DNA of 64,000 bases from contig JAPEUD010000021.1 in the NCBI GenBank assembly GCA_026026165.1, positions 248,001 through 312,000 on the forward strand, read 5' to 3'. Under the pieces are notes generated by a model. The model was not told the DNA's origin. It was given only the letters and a program-made list of their open reading frames with translations, and made no database searches. Made by a program: the position numbers and the translations under genes. This DNA is from Sarea resinae. Its lineage: Eukaryota. Within the stretch, counting starts at the first letter, position 1. Every line of letters begins with the position of its first letter. Shown piece after piece: positions 8,902-37,095 of the stretch.

Positions 8902-9182
8902 TTTGCAGGTAGGGAACGGTGAGTATGGTGAGGTACCCGTGGCAGATGCCAGCTGTTCTGGAGTTGTGAGAAGATGGCGAGAGTGTCAGATATAAGCAAT
9001 GTTGATGCGCGGCGCGGCGCGCATCGAGTGCGGCCGCACCGGCCGACCAGCTGGAACCGTCTGTTTTTTCTGCCACCGCACTCGGCAATTTATTTTCAGA
9101 CCCCACCACACTCACCACCGACGCCGCCCAGCTCTCCACCCCTAAGCCTCGAATTCAATACTCAACACCAGCCTCCAGAGCC

Positions 9183-10705
9183 ATGAGTGAAGAGCAAAAC
9201 CCCGCAATGGGGGCCTCAGAGCAGCCCGATCCAGAGCTCGAAGCCCAGATGATTCTCCTAGCCGCTTCCCACCACGACATCGAAACCCTACGCACCCTCC
9301 TCCGCACCGGCTCCGCCAATGTCCAGGACCCAGACACGGGCTACACGCCCCTGCACTGCGCGATTGCGGCTCTGGCTCCCGAGCCAGAACATGCGACCCC
9401 AGGTGCTGCTGAGGGAGAACAGTCGAACGGTCAGCTAGACGCAGATGCAATGGCGCAGAAGGAGAAGGAGAGAGAAGACGACATCCAGGCGGCGGCGAGG
9501 ACCATGCGCCTACTGCTCCAGAACGGCGCCATCTGGAACGATTTGGATAACAACGACGAGACGCCTGGGTGCTTGGCTAGGAGATTACGATTGAGGGAGT
9601 TGTACGAGATCATGGTTGATGCGGGCGTCAGGGCCGAGTTATTGCTGAATAGACTCGATGAGTACGAGCCGCTTGGTGACGATGATGAAGACGACGACGA
9701 GCCCGAAGAAGGAGAAGCAGACAATCAGGACGACAAAGAGAAAGACGCTACTACCACCAGCGCGCCCGAGGACCAAGTGGACACGGCAAATACTACCACG
9801 CAGCCTACCCCTATCGCCACAGAAGACAACGCGGCAACCGGCCCCACCCCCGCCGACCCTACGGACGCCTCCACGCTCAACCCGGCTTACCTCTCCTCAA
9901 CCCTCTCCATAACGCCCCACCGGATCCTCGACGCCTCCGCCAACGCAGTAATGATGTCGTGGGAAACATCGCTGATGCAATCCACAGCGCGCCTCCTGGC
10001 ACCGGTACCAGGCCTGCGCATCCTCAACATCGGCCACGGCATGGGGATAATCGACCAGGCATTCCGCGACGCGCCGACGCCGGAGCTGGCCGCAGGGGCC
10101 CCCCCCATGCCCGAAATACCCCACACGCCATCAGACCACGTCATCGTGGAGGCGCACCCGGACGTGCTACGCCACATGGGCGAGCAGGGCTGGCACTCCC
10201 GGCCCGGCGTGCGCGTGCTCGGCGGGCGCTGGCAGGACGTCGTGCCGCAGCTGGTCGAGAACGGCGACGTCTTCGACGCCATCTTCTTCGACACCTTCGC
10301 CGAGGACTACAAGGCCCTGCGCGACTTCTTCACCGAGTACGTCGTCGCGCTCCTCGAGCCCGACGGCGGCCGCTTTAGCTTCTTCAACGGCATGGGCGCC
10401 GATCGCGCCGTCTGCTATGATGTCTATAATAAAGTGAGTCTTCCACTTTTTGCCCCCTGAAAATCAGAGAAGGATACAGCAGAGTTGGAAAATAGAAGGA
10501 CAATGCGCAACTGACTGACTGACTGACACCACTGCACACACAGGTCGTCGAGATGGACCTCTTCGAGGCCGGCTTCGACGTCGAATGGAGCGATTTCCCC
10601 ATCCCAAGCGAGGGCCTCAAGAAGAGCGGCACCTGGGACGGCGTCCGGCGCGCCTACTGGGACGTCCAGAATTACCGCACTCCGCTCTGTCGCTTTATGC
10701 AGTAG
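9183..10705 (+). CDS. RMT2: Protein arginine N-methyltransferase 2 (ankyrin-like N-terminus plus SAM-dependent methyltransferase, 2 exons)
   Basis: Motifs LLQNGAIWNDLD..ETPGC, VDAGVRAELLL, NAVMMSWE, ILNIGHGMGIID, VEAHPDV, FDAIFFDTFAEDY and FSFFNGMGAD. Intron 10434-10543; last exon VVEMDLFEAGF...WDGVRRAYW. Confidence 0.93.
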
Positions 10706-11294: not shown

Positions 11295-12705
11295 CTACCA
11301 GTCCGGGATGAGTTTATTATAGACAGCATCTTGCTCGTCTCTCACGACGGCCGCGGCCTCGGCGCCGCTGACAACAGGCAAGCGCTTCCCGTGCGCCTTG
11401 CCGACGCCCGCGGTGCCGGGATCCAGCACCCCAGCCTGCACCAGCACGCTCGCCTGGTCCCAGTAGACGCGCTCGTGGGCGACCTTGCCGCCACGCACAC
11501 AGACGATGCTGATGAGGGGCACCTCGACGTGTTTGCCCGTCGGCGGCAGGCCCGGCAGCATAAAGGGGATCTCGACATCGTGGTCGAAGGAGACGATCAG
11601 CTCGTCGACGACGCGGTCGACGCCGATCGTGCGTGAGATTAGCTGGGTGCGGTAACTCCGAGGGAGCCGCGGCATGAAGAATTCTTTGTAGAAGCGCTTT
11701 AGGTCCTTGTGGCCGACGCCGCCCGTCAGCGTTGGGGTGTATGTGATGTGCGGTTCGGGCGGCGCGGAGGCGGCTGGGGTAAGTGTTTTAAGCGTCGCCG
11801 AGGCCGAGCGCGTGGTTGTTTCTTCTGTAAGGGTGATGAAGATCGGGAGGTTAGCTCTGGAAGATTGTTGATTCAAAGCGAATAGGTCCAAGGGGACAGA
11901 AAGGGGATATGAAGAAAAACATACTGGTCAGATGGTCCTCGACCATGTGCTCGAGATCGACTTCGGTGTTCGACGCCTTTCTCACAAGACCCAGTGTGCG
12001 GCTCCACGCCAGCGACGCGGCCACCTTGTCGTAGTTGACCGAATTCTGCTCCGCGAAGCCCGGCAGCACGCCTGGATAGGTGTAGTTTGGGTAGCGCGGC
12101 TCGTAGGGCTTGCCGCCGGCGAGGTGGACAAGAGTGCGCAGGCTCGGGGGAAAGCTGGCGTTCTGCGCAGGAATCTGCGTTGGGTAGTACGCTATTAGCG
12201 CGTTCATTTTGTTCATGGGTTTCAGAGCGGCGGCGAGGGCCTCGGTGGCTGCGATTCCGAAGACTGCGGAAGAGTATTAGCTGTTGTTTCAGTTTGGCGC
12301 AATCGAGGACGATTCTGTTGCTCTACATTCTCGACAAATGATTCAAGTGGACCCGGAGGTTTTGACTGACACCTCTGTCTCGAGTACAGGACCGGTTTCG
12401 AATGAGGACAATAATAATCAGGGGCAAGCAATACCCACAAGCGCATACCCCATCCCAAGCTCGAGGTCCTCGGTCTGTCGGTTTAGTTCATTAATGTATT
12501 CCTTGCCCCCGCCTTCGAAGGGCAGGAAAAAGACCTCGAAGCCTTCGTCCTCGAGGAAGTTCATGATATCTTGGTCGAAATCATCTTCGGTCGCGTCGGC
12601 GCTGACGACGACGCGGGGCGGCGATCGATTGAAGCTGAGGAAGCCGCCTTTACGATCGGTGCCGTTGTGCTTGTCGGCTGTGAAGGTGCTGGTTGGGGGC
12701 GCCAT
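11295..12705 (-). CDS. Dienelactone-hydrolase-like domain fused to a SnoaL/NTF2-like domain (3 exons)
   Basis: DLH-like N-half (ALIAYYP, YTYPGV..GFAE, YDKVAASLAWSRTLGLVRK). C-half PTLTGGVG..LKRFY..FF...LISRTIGVDRVVDEL..SFDHDVEIPFMLPGLPPTGKHVEVP...HERVYWDQASVLVQAGVLDP is typical of the SnoaL-like fungal family. Confidence 0.85.
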
Positions 12706-31855: not shown

Positions 31856-32839
31856 CTTAAATTGATTACGGTAGTCTCTTACCGCAGCAGCGCAGAACCG
31901 ACAATGCTCTACTCCGGCGTACTGGAGGGCCCTCGGGCTGTTACCTTTCGGACAATGTTTTGGTGTTTTGATCGAGGGACCTGGGGCTCCCACAAAACAT
32001 CCCAAACATGGTGCTGACCTATCTCATAATCAGCCCCGGAAGAGTCGATCAACAATTCCAAGATCGATCACGTAGAATCACCAGATTCATTCATCCGTCC
32101 CTTCAGCTCCGGCTCCTATCGATTCACAATCGCCTCGTGCTATATTCCAAACGTCTCGTCTAGAGCAATGATTCCTACTCCTCTAGCGATGACGCTGATG
32201 AATCGTTGCTCGACGCTGGTATCCTTTTATCAATGAAGCATGGAATGGTCGACCTGCAGCAGGCCAATGTTGGCCCTAAGCCAGCCGTCTGAGGGATGAT
32301 CTGCTCCTACTATTGAATTGGACCTCTCACTATCACTGTCGCCGTAATGTTGTGTTGCACAGCTTCAGCGGAAATCTTTTCCAAAAAATATTCCATCGAA
32401 TCTGATGCGACATTACTTAGGCAAAGAAGCCAGTCTTGTTACAGGCACAAGGTTATCGCGAATCTATGTGGTGAGGCTGCAGCATGTCAAAGCTTTCTTG
32501 GACGTATGCAGCGCATGATAAATGGCCCTTTTGCCACATTTCAGGTTTGCTATGTTGGGTCGGCGCTTAGAGAAAGCATCGCATTGGACGATGGGAGCGC
32601 TGCTGACAGCGGGGCTGAACAATGCTGTTATGATTCAGCCTCACATTCTGTGCACCCTTAAGGGCGCCTTGATTTTGCTCATCGTCCATCTTCTCATCGC
32701 TCTCGCCGATCCCCGCTTTTGACTCTGGATATCTGACAGACTCTGCCGGTAGACTACCGGTAATTGCTTTCCCACGGCGAGCGTAGCCTTCAATCGCAAG
32801 ATCATGACATCGTTCCCTCCACCTCAAGGTCGCGATGGC

Positions 32840-35800
32840 ATGGCGCAGAAGTCTGGCCGCAGCAAAGATGATGGAATTGCATTATTGGCTCTCGGTATAT
32901 CTAGTCAATGCATACTCTTTTTATCTTAACGCCATGCAGATGGAGGTGGCATTCGCGGGGTGTCGGAACTCCTGATACTCCATGAAATCATGAATCGCAT
33001 TCAACACGACCTGGATCTCCCCATTCTCCCCCGGCCTTGTGATTTTTTTGATTTGATAGGAGGCACCAGCACTGGAGGGTATGTTGGCATTGAATTTAAA
33101 TTGATGCTCTATCAGATGATCGTGCAACAGGCTGACTCGCCTCAACAGTATCATTGCGCTCATGCTTGGCCGTTTACGTATGAGCACCAACGAAGCTCTT
33201 CGAATCTATAACTCGTTCTCGCGGGAAGTATTTTCCAAAGAAAATCGGAAATGGATTCACCAGGATGGGTCTTTCAAAGCGACAACACTCGAGAGGAAGA
33301 TACAGGACATTGTATCGGAAAGAAACTTGGGAGAATTTTTGCTCAGTCCGCTCGAGCAGCAGGGGGAAAGCAAGGCTTTCGTCTGCGCAATTGCTGCCAG
33401 CGATCTACAGCCACGACTCTTTCGGACTTATCGGGTGAGGGAAAACCCCAGCGCAAATTGCAGAATCTGGGAAGCAGCCCGCGCAACGTCCGCTGCTCCG
33501 ACATTTTTCAAGCGCATTTCGATTGGCGAGGAAGGGCATCCGATGGAAGAATTCATCGATGCTGCAGTTGGCTACAACAACCCAGCGAATTTGGTTCTAG
33601 AGGAGGCCAAGAATGTTTTCGGAAGCGCAAAGCCTATCCGCTGCGTCGTCAGTGTCGGAACTGGCCATCCTGGAACAGTTGGCTTGGCAAGGCCGGATGC
33701 TTTTCAGAAGATCTTGCCTACAAAGCTGATACAAGTACTCAAGCAGACTGCTACCGAATGTGAGCAGACAGCAAGTCTGATCAGCAAGCGATTCAAAGAT
33801 TTCGAAGACTTCTACTTTCGTTTCAACGTGGAACATGGCGCCGAAGGCGTCTCTCTTGAAGAGTGGAATAAAATGGGAGAAATGCAAGGGTTCACAAAGA
33901 CTTATCTCTCAAACGTCTCGGTGACGAAAGCGATTGATAGTGTTGTTCAGAAGCTGTGCCATCCAGGGCCCTGTGAGCAGACTCTCGGAAGCACTTGTCT
34001 GTAACTACATCGTCGTTCTTACCTTACTCACATGGATCTAACCACATGGTAGTGGGTGAGCAGAATCGTTTGCCGATTCAAATTCAAAGTCGACCTAAGC
34101 CTGTGCCGAGCTCCATTTTTACTGGTCGCGTGAAGACACTGAGAAGACTTCAGAGCTTTTTCTCGACTCGAACTCTAGGCTCCGGACCGAGAAGAGAATG
34201 TCTCTTGTACGGGATGGGTGGGGCAGGGAAAACGCAGATCGCATTACAGTTCATCCGGGAGTGCAATGACAGGTGATCAGGCTTTCTGGCGTTTTATAAT
34301 GGGCACTAAAGTTCGTCAGATTTGAAGCGGTGCTCTGGATCGACGCAACCAACCGTTTGACTATCGAACAAAGCTATAAATCTATAGCGATTGCTCAGAA
34401 CTTGGCTGGTATGGGTAGAGATAATCTTGTCCAACAGGCTCTTTCTTGGCTCTCGCAGTCAGATCAGGAATGGCTTCTGTTGTTCGACAATTGCGAGAGC
34501 GTTGAAGCCATCGAGCGGCTCCTTCCCGATGGCGACCGAGGAAATATATTATTCACGAGCAGAAATCCGGAGCTCGGTCTTGCTGTTCAAGAATCCATCT
34601 CGATTGTAGAATTCGAAATTGAGGATGCTGTCACGTTGTTGCTCAAAGCTGCCAAGAAGGACCCCGAGGATGAGAGGCTGCGAAAGGACGCAAAGCCTAT
34701 TGTCGAATCACTTGGATATTTACCTCTTGCCATCGATATTGCTGGGGCGTCGATTTACATGGGTCGCCACCGCTTGAACGACTACGTGCAGACTCTAAGC
34801 CAACATCGCAGAGCAATGATGAAGGACTCGAGCTTCAAGGGTTCCTCAAAATATAATCAAGCTGTATATACCGTTTGGGACATCTCATATGAGGCTCTCA
34901 GCTTGGCAACGCAAGGTCGGGAAGATGTGCGGAAAGCTGAAGCTGCGCTATCAGCAATGCATATTCTTGGCCTGTCTGCTTACTTCCATAACGAAGCCAT
35001 CATGGAAGAGATCTTTAAGCGGGCCGCAGAGAGCCGCGCTCTCTCCAACGACCGAAGAGCACGGTATAGGATAGGAAATAGCGGAGATCTCTTAAGACTG
35101 TTCACCCTTGATAAGACAGGAATATGGGATTCGTACCTTTTCAGGATGGGATTGTCAATGCTGGTCTCCTTTTCCTTAATCAACCAGGATCAGAGTGGGC
35201 ATTACTTCTCAGTGCATACTTTGATCCACTCCTGGGCTCGAGATCGAATGCCTCAGTCTATTGAACAGGCCCAACATGACGCTGCAATTGCTGTTTTAGC
35301 ATCCTCGATCACTAGGGGACATCTCACGGAGGACTATGCTTTTCGCCGGCAGTTGTTGCCACACATCAAGACTTGTATCCAGTACAGCACAGCAAGAGCA
35401 ATAAACAATGAAGAAAAGCTCGTGGATGCAAGCAATTTTGCTCTCGTATACGGCGAGAGTGGGTACTGGAAGGAGGCGGAGGATCTCCAGATGCAATTAA
35501 TGGAGACAAGAAGCCGAGTGCTTGGGCACGAACATCCTGACACCTTGACTACTCAGGCTAACCTGGCTGCGACCTTTTTGAATCAAGGGCGATGGAAGGA
35601 GGCGGAGAAGCTTGGGTTGCAAGTCATACAGACAAGTAAACAAGTGCTCGGGCAAGAACACCTACACACCTTGATTAGTCAAGCTAATCTGGCTACGACC
35701 TACTGGAATCAAGGGCGATGGAAGGAGGCAGAGGAGCTTGAGGTGCAAGTGATGGAGACGAGCGTACGAGCGCTTGGGCAAGAACATCTCTACACCTTGC

Positions 35801-36360
35801 TTAGTCAAGCAAATCTGGCTGCGACCTACCAGAATCAAGGGCGATGGAAGGAGGCGGAGGGGCTTGGGGAGAAGGTGATGGAAACAAGAAAACAAGTGCT
35901 CGGGCAAGAACATCCTCACACCTTGATCAGTCAAGCTAATCTGGCCTCGGTCTACCTAAATCAAGGGCGATGGAAGGAGTCTGAAGAGCTCCAGGTGCAA
36001 GTGATGAAGACGAGAAAACAAGTGCTCGGGCAAGAACATCCCCACACCTTGAGCAGTCAAGCTGATCTGGCCGCGGCCTACTGGAACCAAGGGCGATGGA
36101 AGGAGGCAGAGGAGCTTGGGGCGAAAGTGATGGAGATAAGAACTCGGGTGCTCGGGCAAGAACATCCTGACACCTTGGTCAGTCAAGCCAATCGGGCGGT
36201 CACATACTTGCGTCAAGGCCGGCATTCTGAAGCGCTTGTTTTGATGAGGCAGTGCGTAGAGTTGTCTCTGCGTACGCTCGGGGAAGAACATCCACATACA
36301 CAAGCCCGATTTACTGCTTTGAGAAAATGGGAAGAAGAGCTCAACCCCAATACCTCATAA
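32840..36360 (+). CDS. Fungal NLR-like protein: patatin-like phospholipase - NB-ARC - TPR repeats (5 exons)
   Basis: Introns 32895-32939, ~33079-33148, 33997-34052 and 34273-34319 give one frame. Patatin LALDGGGIRG, GGTSTGG, WEAARATSAAPTFF and FIDAAVGYNNP. NB-ARC FTGR, Walker A GMGGAGKT, Walker B WLLLFDN, ILFTSR, GYLPLAI and VHTLIHSW. Then 42-aa TPR units. Confidence 0.93.
35533..36288 (+). repeat. Intragenic tandem array of six 126-bp TPR-coding units
   Basis: AA(T/C)CAAGGGCGATGGAAGGAG recurs at 35581, 35707, 35833, 35959 and 36085, an exact 126-bp period. Confidence 0.95.
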
Positions 36361-36749
36361 TTACACATCACGATTCTGACACTTGAATTTCTACTGGATC
36401 ATCCGCTTATTTGTACGATTCAAATATAACTTCACTTGACTGCAACATGTTCCTGAACATATCTGACACTCAAACGTTCTTCTGGATCTTCAATTTCTTT
36501 GTACCATTGCAATATCCCTTCTCTTGGTTGCAACTCGTCCCTGAACATACTCTGGAAGTTTCTCCTGATACCATAACCTTGGCCGCCAAGGAGTACACCT
36601 CTATAGATTCGCTGATGTGTGATATCTGGTTCTTTGTTGTCAACGCACCGGGTGGCTTTGGAGCGTGAGACAGTCCTTACGGTATCGATCGATGACACGC
36701 AATTATAGGACTTTTTCGGCGACGAGGGGATTCGTCTTCCCAGAAGCGG

Positions 36750-37095
36750 AGGGATGGATGGATGGATGAATGCATGGACGAGAAATAGAACGCATCCATG
36801 AGACCCCTCGAGTGGGAAAATCATTCAAACGTGCACAAGAAGCAAGCAAGCAAGCAAGCAAGCACATGCAGATCTCAAACGTGGGCCAGGGAGGGGTGTC
36901 CACGAAATATTTGATGTATAGAACGCAGGCCACTTAGATACACGCTTTGGGAACTTCTGCTGCAGTGAAACTAAACTCCTTCCTTCCTTCCCTTTCTCTC
37001 CCCTCTGGGGCCTGATGAGCCTGATGACCTATCTGCAATGCCTGCCTGCCTGCCTGCTTGCCTATAGGATGGGACCGGGAGGATGGATGGATACA
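36750..37095. repeat. Cluster of tetranucleotide microsatellites (GGAT)n, (GCAA)n, (TGCC)n
   Basis: Read directly between the NLR and sirtuin 3' ends. Confidence 0.8.

Follow-up and report, generated by a model that had tools for sequence, protein, structure and literature searches.

The window, by which we mean the whole 64-kb stretch of Sarea resinae DNA that was analysed, probably carries an intact five-exon gene for a protein of about 1100 aa, a fungal NOD-like receptor (NLR; STAND NTPase) of the Patatin / NB-ARC / TPR class for which a death-triggering mechanism can be proposed. The predicted gene structure, the three domains, and the intact catalytic and nucleotide-binding motifs are all read from the sequence, and from what is known of the family the protein may act as an immune or allorecognition receptor. 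The analysis contributes a patatin NLR with an improved gene model from a resin-dwelling fungus, and revises a deposited annotation in which the catalytic serine and the P-loop are missed. A member of this large, catalogued class has already been characterised, and the Sarea gene opens no new question about the class.

Gene structure and conserved introns

Splicing at four introns, all with GT..AG boundaries, joins the five exons into one open frame with no internal stops (Table 1), and the predicted product is 1100 aa long if exon 3 ends at 33996 or 1092 aa long if it ends at 33972. The 'MAQ...LLAL' start is common to the annotated relatives P0007, P0014, and P0108 (P0009 starts MTQ) and is also found in the metagenome loci L001, L002, and L005 (L007 starts MEQ), with an in-frame stop lying just 5' of the start in L001 and L005. 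An in-frame ATG at 32804, upstream of the one at 32840, would add 12 aa.

Table 1. Predicted features of the Sarea resinae patatin NLR gene, in window positions (a slash marks a splice junction)
Feature	Position	Strand	Description
Exon 1	32840..32894	+	MAQKSGRSKDDGIALLAL and first base of Asp19 codon; starts with ATG
Intron 1	32895..32939	+	45 nt, GT..AG, phase 1
Exon 2	32940..33078	+	patatin oxyanion loop DGGGIRG and nucleophile elbow GGTSTGG
Intron 2	33079..33148	+	70 nt, GG/GT..AG/T, splits Gly65 codon
Exon 3	33149..33996 (alternative end 33972)	+	rest of patatin domain and helical linker
Intron 3	33997..34052	+	56 nt, T/GTCTGT..TAG/TG; alternative donor 33973 gives 80 nt
Exon 4	34053..34272	+	NB-ARC start with P-loop GMGGAGKT
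Intron 4	34273..34319	+	47 nt, AG/GT..AG/A, splits Arg codon
Exon 5, first part	34320..35379	+	rest of NB-ARC and helical linker
Exon 5, second part	35380..36360	+	TPR_10 array and C-terminal cap; stop TAA 36358-36360
DGGGIRG	32894/32940-32959		oxyanion loop
Ser62 codon	33068-33070		nucleophile, in GTSTG
Asp202 codon	33558-33560		catalytic Asp, in IDAAVGYNNP
GMGGAGKT	34211-34234		P-loop
LLLFD	34474-34488		Walker B
Tandem repeat (TRF)	35467-36197		period 126, 5.8 copies, 80% match

The places of the introns recur in related metagenome loci. At the site of intron 1, a G/GT.. insertion 49-51 nt long is present in all four loci with an exon-1 match (L001, L002, L005, and L007), these matches being weak (E 0.26-0.9) but collinear. 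The intron 2 site holds an insertion of 55-203 nt in 8/8 related loci, and in the seven that were read base by base the insertion has the form GG/GT..AG/N and its removal restores Gly65 (7/7). For intron 3, the corresponding position shows a T/GTNNGT donor in 5/6 loci (L001, L002, L004, L005, and L006), with L007 having no GT there. Both candidate donors of this intron in the Sarea gene, GTCTGT at 33997 and GTGAGC at 33973, keep the frame, and the former is the more likely because it retains 'CEQTLGST', which aligns with 'TGVTLGSTC' of P0009, and because its place matches that in the five loci. Intron 4 is found as GT..AG at the same place and in the same phase in L002, L006, and L007 (3/6), and is missing from L003, L004, and L005, the NB-ARC regions of which are only 29-34% identical.

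Furthermore, alignment with full-length relatives leaves the spliced protein unbroken at all four junctions, identity being 54-55% for P0007 and P0009 and 47% for P0102 over the full length. The junctions are thus placed by comparison, from intron positions and from alignment to relatives, and the in-frame five-exon model together with the introns conserved in relatives makes it very likely that patatin, NB-ARC, and TPR regions lie on one polypeptide. The GC content of the gene (0.48-0.50) is near that of its flanks and there is no signature of decay; GC is not an outlier and so gives no grounds for proposing recent transfer or RIP.

Catalytic, switch and repeat regions

The patatin domain is split between exons 2 and 3. 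Exon 3 matches Pfam Patatin (PF01734) at 38.6 bits (cut-off 27.7) over profile positions 40-189 of 191 and includes an ATSAAPTFFK stretch, and exon 2 covers profile positions 5-37 with 24.9 bits over 45 aa, which taken alone is below the cut-off. Amongst 119 relatives, DGGGIRG is found in 91 and GGTSTGG in 85, and the motif at the catalytic Asp reads DGG in 78, DAG in 21, DGA in 12, DAA in five, and otherwise in three. With five such relatives, the DAA of the Sarea gene is a recurrent variant that retains the Asp, and in alignment this Asp motif falls on 'fadgglvannp' of the CapV phospholipase, the structure of which is solved (8zr9). Ala instead of Gly in both of the positions that follow the Asp is nevertheless uncommon amongst the relatives, which counts against the favoured explanation.

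The predicted nucleotide-binding switch begins in exon 4, which aligns with 'LLYGLGGAGKTQ' of P0007, P0009, and P0014 and has an AAA_16 match of 23.8 bits, below cut-off, over the P-loop region. Residues 2-191 of exon 5 match Pfam NB-ARC at 27.4 bits (cut-off 23.5), and a weak DUF7779 match (19.5 bits) falls below its cut-off. Besides Walker B, the first part of exon 5 contains ILFTSR and GYLPLAI, and its linker an MHD-like 'SVHTLIHSW'; these motif names follow NB-ARC nomenclature. The MHD-like motif reads VHT in the Sarea gene versus MHV in close relatives, which likewise counts against the favoured explanation.

The remainder of exon 5 matches TPR_10 (271 bits in seven stretches) and TPR_12 (199 bits) and is made up of seven 42-aa units followed by a C-terminal cap; of the solved structures, the TPRs of kinesin light chain come nearest to it (E 3e-32). 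Among the five central repeats, identity is 75-88% at the nucleotide level and 62-81% (mean 70%) at the amino acid level. Unlike NLRs with highly internally conserved repeats, for which the threshold is an identity above 85% across 100 aa or more and which are linked to rapid diversification (Dyrka et al. 2014, PMC4986451), the Sarea gene has repeats that miss this threshold. It therefore lies outside that subclass, a further point against the favoured explanation.

The sequence-only reading had described five exons in one frame that keep the oxyanion loop, the nucleophile Ser, the catalytic Asp in its DAA form, a full P-loop, and a TPR sensor. All of these stand: the frame through the open reading frame, the conserved introns, and the unbroken alignment to relatives, and the domains through the motifs, each read in the sequence, and through a Pfam scan run per exon that matched Patatin, NB-ARC, and TPR_10 / TPR_12. 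[quoted passage not shown] According to the same sources, PLP-1 self-associates, and death requires both its patatin activity and its P-loop.

By analogy with these accounts of PLP-1 and with STAND proteins, the TPR array would keep the Sarea protein off until a protein ligand is bound or lost. The NB-ARC might then exchange nucleotide through its P-loop and oligomerise, after which the clustered patatin domains, with the putative Ser62/Asp202 dyad, would hydrolyse membrane phospholipids, and the cell would undergo regulated death when non-self is encountered.

Family, neighbourhood and alternative readings

Searches with patatin regions returned 558 matches in one case and 1309 when seeded with the patatin-to-P-loop region of the Sordariales relative P0202. 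The closest relatives among the matches listed, at 47-55% identity, are Patatin / NB-ARC / TPR proteins from Patellaria, Mytilinidion, and lichen-forming fungi; no protein of Neurospora, Podospora, or Cryphonectria is among the best 120 of the 558 or the best 120 of the 1309 matches. By crude regular expressions, a Walker A motif follows the patatin domain in 105/119 relatives, of which 61/119 also have at least two TPR_10-like motifs. The family profile matches kinesin light chain TPRs (1e-42), AfsR (3e-21), CapV (9e-17), and ZAR1 (4e-13), as well as the NB-ARC regions of NRC1 and Roq1. Scanning of metagenomes with the single exon-3 protein gave no relative, and a second scan, based on alignment A1, yielded 80 loci. 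The whole gene is present only in its probable source sample, and from another sample come just two short pieces, which differ from it at 0-1 positions; the DNA contigs X2 and X3, which match mostly the TPR repeats at less than 95% likeness, are from other organisms.

The gene sits between MCM4 (28.3-31.8 kb) and a SIR2-family (sirtuin) gene (37.2-38.6 kb), with gaps of about 1.0 and 0.85 kb. Its earlier description as embedded amongst housekeeping genes is confirmed, as COG4, a P-type ATPase, Rad21, VTC, and ribophorin I are also encoded in the window. Neither MCM4 nor sirtuin was found in the flanks of 10 related loci (0/10), which hold unrelated genes (SDR, CwfJ, CPAF-like PDZ, NACHT NLR, TAF10, M20 peptidase), and thus no synteny was found. 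The Sarea gene is a member of a dispersed, fast-evolving family.

The deposited gene model, P0001, describes a product of 944 aa that starts inside exon 3, skips exon 4, and is without the oxyanion loop, nucleophile Ser, and P-loop. Were P0001 real, the product would be a non-catalytic, non-switching TPR protein, either a decoy or the remnant of a decaying gene. P0001 is the sole public annotation, but exons 1, 2, and 4 are open and in phase, exon 2 is 57-89% identical to related loci, and the introns around these exons keep their place and phase there, all of which makes this reading highly improbable. The same gap affects other deposited models amongst 10 that were aligned, P0106 and P0110 being without the P-loop, and P0107 and P0111 without the stretch right after it; since full-length relatives carry the exon, its recurrent absence points to a recurrent gene-calling error. 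A short P-loop exon between two short conserved introns would thus seem to be dropped by gene callers in Sarea and in several lichen-fungus assemblies, and if this is true, NLR repertoires of these poorly sampled classes would be systematically undercounted. Judged by comparison with relatives, the five-exon model of the sequence-only reading is better than P0001, which begins too far downstream, inside exon 3, and omits the P-loop exon. An intact gene could still encode something other than a death receptor, for instance a regulated lipase that acts in lipid signalling or remodels membranes, or a silent copy kept in reserve within a large NLR repertoire that is turning over. The very large size of the family suits such a role, but the catalytic and switch motifs are all retained, the closest solved patatin domain is that of the immune effector phospholipase CapV, and the only members of the Patatin / NB-ARC / TPR architecture reported as tested act in cell death; this reading is therefore rather unlikely.

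Another reading takes the gene as the equivalent in Sarea of the PLP-1/SEC-9 (HET-Z, vic2) allorecognition pair, in which the TPR array would read allelic variants of SEC-9 and kill fused cells that differ in genotype. The shared domain order is consistent with this, as is the repeated origin of NLR-SNARE pairing in fungi reported in PMC12881547. However, PMC11138114 places a polymorphic sec-9 SNARE gene near plp-1 in N. crassa, whereas MCM4 and a SIR2-family gene adjoin the Sarea gene. No SNARE or SNAP-25 family match was found in 52 ORFs of at least 127 aa across the window, or in 112 ORFs of at least 85 aa (18 of them also among the 52) from the parts of the window without a Pfam-annotated gene, and no SNARE family match in 41 flanking ORFs of the 10 related loci. 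The absence of Neurospora, Podospora, and Cryphonectria from the best matches also argues against the pair, and N. crassa plp-2, a protein of this kind too, works without sec-9 (PMC11138114). We consider a Sarea PLP-1/SEC-9 pair quite improbable. The Sarea gene has no linked SNARE partner among the ORFs scanned in the window, and a sec-9 allele next to it is unlikely to be the ligand, though an unlinked sec-9 could serve. The likeness to the PLP-1 system thus holds for the domain architecture and not for the nearby SNARE gene, and since the architecture occurs here without an adjacent SNARE, it is not by itself grounds for assigning a locus to allorecognition of the PLP-1/SEC-9 type. We suggest only tentatively, as a possible if doubtful reading, that this patatin NLR acts without a linked SNARE guardee, as a lineage-specific insertion between conserved MCM4 and sirtuin genes that is directed at another target, host or microbial.

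Comparison with known systems

That the Patatin / NB-ARC / TPR architecture had already been described, as the sequence-only reading stated, agrees with its place in catalogues of fungal NLRs. Patatin is one of 12 N-terminal classes, and NB-ARC pairs preferentially with TPR (Dyrka et al. 2014, PMC4986451); furthermore, in Sordariales the NB-ARC type accounts for 95% of patatin NLRs (PMC12258605). The predicted Sarea protein resembles this class in its patatin domain (PF01734) with Gly-rich oxyanion loop, GxSxG, and Asp, in its central NB-ARC with Walker A and Walker B, and in its C-terminal TPRs.

Amongst individual proteins, and compared by their descriptions, PLP-1 (NCU09244), Podospora HET-Z1, and the Cryphonectria vic2 patatin NLR share its domain order. 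The likeness to PLP-1 extends to the catalytic Ser and Asp and the P-loop, and the difference lies in the SNARE gene, which was found neither beside the Sarea gene nor elsewhere among the ORFs scanned in the window. The gene shares with N. crassa plp-2 and A. fumigatus hetC, patatin-bearing candidates for non-self recognition (PMC11138114), the lack of an adjacent partner. By description, hetC consists of the patatin-like part only, whereas the Sarea gene has the full NB-ARC and TPR regions.

The closest solved patatin domain is that of the bacterial CBASS effector CapV (PDB 8zr9), with which an ATSAAPTFFK-like stretch and the catalytic Asp motif D-x-x...NNP align. CapV is a cGAMP-activated patatin phospholipase, an immune lipase that kills the cell. 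Unlike the predicted Sarea protein, in which the lipase is fused to an NB-ARC/TPR switch, CapV stands alone and is activated by a cyclic dinucleotide.

Structure and motifs of the NLR gene

The five exons of the Patatin / NB-ARC / TPR NLR candidate join in phase into one frame, as the sequence-only reading had proposed; the frame codes for 1092 or 1100 amino acids and has no internal stop codon, and each of the four introns (45, 70, 80 or 56, and 47 nt) begins with GT and ends with AG. The motifs that had been claimed for the protein are all found in its translation, namely DGGGIRG, GTSTG (Ser62), IDAAVGYNNP (Asp202) and the P-loop GMGGAGKT, as is a Walker B motif, LLLFD, and a Pfam scan run separately on each exon matched Patatin, NB-ARC and TPR_10. 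The gene is real and apparently intact. Its MAQ start is common to relatives, and at two related loci from a metagenome scan (L001 and L005) an in-frame stop lies immediately upstream. A second in-frame ATG, with A at -3, is found upstream at 32804, and would add 12 residues (MTSFPPPQGRDG) ahead of the conserved start.

Features of the NLR gene and its neighbors (window positions)
Feature	Position	Strand	Remarks
NLR gene	32840-36360	+	five exons, one frame
Exon 1	32840-32894	+	open, in phase
Exon 2	32940-33078	+	open, in phase
Exon 3	33149-33972 or 33149-33996	+	open, in phase
Exon 4	34053-34272	+	open, in phase
Exon 5	34320-36360	+	open, in phase
Patatin	exon 2		Pfam 24.9 bits, 45-aa piece; alone below the 27.7 cut-off
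Patatin	exon 3		Pfam 38.6 bits, cut-off 27.7
AAA_16	exon 4, across the P-loop		Pfam 23.8 bits, below cut-off
NB-ARC	exon 5		Pfam 27.4 bits, cut-off 23.5
TPR_10	exon 5		Pfam 271 bits, seven stretches
MCM4	28.3-31.8 kb	-	flanks NLR gene
SIR2-family gene	37.2-38.6 kb	-	flanks NLR gene

Among 119 patatin-domain relatives the catalytic Asp motif reads DGG in 78, DAG in 21, DGA in 12, DAA in 5 and otherwise in 3, so that the DAA of the window gene represents a recurrent minority state in which the Asp is retained; Asp202 aligns with the catalytic motif of CapV, a bacterial patatin phospholipase of solved structure. The TPR array is moderately repetitive, its five central units sharing 75-88% nucleotide and 62-81% (mean 70%) amino acid identity, and these units fall short of the 85% identity by which highly conserved NLR repeats have been defined (PMC4986451).

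Splice junctions and the deposited model

The junctions were assessed by comparison, using protein alignment and related DNA. The spliced protein aligns without a break across all four junctions with full-length relatives from Patellaria atrata (P0007 and P0014), Mytilinidion resinicola (P0009) and Blastenia crenularia (P0102), with 54-55% identity across the first two thirds of the protein and 47% along its full length. A metagenome scan with the alignment as query returned 80 related loci, eight of which (L001-L007 and L014) were inspected for introns. Intron 1 is found in all four loci with a match to exon 1. At the place of intron 2, an insertion of 55-203 nt separates GTSTG-G from the following exon in 8/8 loci, with boundaries GG|GT...AG|N that restore Gly65 in the seven read base by base. 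The donor of intron 3, T|GTNNGT, directly follows the 'TLGxx' codons in five of six loci, which favors a donor at 33997 over one at 33973. Intron 4 (AG|GT...AG|A) keeps its position and phase in L002, L006 and L007, and is missing from L003-L005, where NB-ARC identity is just 29-34%. Locus L007, on an 81-kb contig, has 49% identity across the patatin region, just one ORF of at least 110 aa in 8.8 kb and no GT at the intron-3 donor place, and may be a decayed copy.

The translation of exon 5 is 100% identical to a deposited 944-aa protein, 'MAG: hypothetical protein M1819_002475 [Sarea resinae]' (P0001). In the stretch 33149-34320 this model begins MLGRLRMS within exon 3, joins VVQKL straight to FEAVLWIDA and skips exon 4, and consequently lacks the oxyanion loop (DGGGIRG), the nucleophile serine (GTSTG) and the P-loop; the gene model of the sequence-only reading is better than the public record. 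Among 10 aligned proteins, four other deposited models (P0106, P0107, P0110 and P0111), from lichen-fungus assemblies, are interrupted at the P-loop exon or directly behind it by a gap that ends at the conserved intron-4 place. This pattern looks like an error that gene callers make repeatedly in this family, and not like biology. Another deposited protein, P0100, likewise begins MLGRLRM.

Genomic surroundings and related copies

The gene does lie among housekeeping genes: beyond the flanking MCM4 and SIR2-family genes are COG4, a P-type ATPase, Rad21, an SPX/VTC gene, ribophorin I, THOC7 and TBCA, and the GC content of the NLR gene (0.48-0.50) is no outlier. Other non-housekeeping ORFs in the window encode ankyrin repeats (9006-10457, + strand) and SnoaL-like and dienelactone-hydrolase-like pieces (11298-12276, - strand). 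Right after the stop codon an 88-bp unit occurs twice (36375-36554, 76% match); farther along, a (CAAG)7.5 microsatellite (36836-36864) and tetranucleotide runs of GGAT and GCCT (near 36750 and 37040) are also present. At 10 loci of relatives, the genomic contexts are unrelated to that of the window. Some relatives adjoin other NLR genes, as a NACHT/NPHP3_N NLR-type ORF lies ~2 kb upstream of the patatin gene in one of them (L020:481-1866, - strand).

The probable source sample also contains two minor contigs, with a depth of ~10 compared to ~330-370 for the main contigs, that align to the patatin region (32743-33666) with 44-54 differences; one of them departs from the window sequence upstream of 32743. 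They may derive from another, related organism or strain present there. One contig of equal depth has only 33465-33514 in common with the window (50 nt, the ATSAAPTFFK region, with one T>C at 33506), is unlike it beyond, and is probably a paralogous patatin gene of the same genome.

Comparison with PLP-1 and the patatin NLR class

Published accounts of PLP-1 (NCU09244; PMC7414189), a characterized Neurospora crassa patatin NLR, describe recognition through the TPR region, a requirement of patatin activity and the NB-ARC P-loop for death, self-association and binding of SEC-9 (PMC12881547; PMC10197012; bioRxiv 2022.04.03.486892). A profile of the family matches first CapV-type patatin lipases, then the NB-ARC of AfsR, ZAR1, NRC1 and Roq1, and finally the TPRs of kinesin light chain. 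Together, these statements and matches make a ligand-controlled STAND switch the best-supported mechanism, in which the switch would come under ligand control, oligomerize, and bring a membrane-attacking lipase into action. What the analysis establishes is the anatomy of the gene alone; we infer each of these functional steps, and a role in immunity or allorecognition, as put forward in the sequence-only reading, is a reasonable inference rather than a finding.

The likeness to PLP-1 holds in part. The feature said to distinguish the PLP-1 system is a nearby sec-9 gene (PMC11138114), whereas the scanned ORFs of the window include no sec-9-type SNARE gene: SNARE and SNAP-25 families had no match in 52 ORFs of at least 127 aa, or in 112 ORFs of at least 85 aa (18 of them overlapping the first set) from window parts lacking a Pfam-annotated gene. 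SNARE families were also absent from 41 ORFs flanking relatives at the 10 loci. The missing partner weakens the specific PLP-1/SEC-9 analogy. Longer proteins matching the patatin exon numbered 558, and 1309 proteins matched a relative's patatin-to-P-loop region; no Neurospora, Podospora or Cryphonectria protein was among the matches listed in either patatin search. Every testable feature of the Patatin / NB-ARC / TPR class, as set out in published catalogs of fungal NLRs (PMC4986451; PMC12258605), is present in the window gene, which adds another member to a known and very large family.
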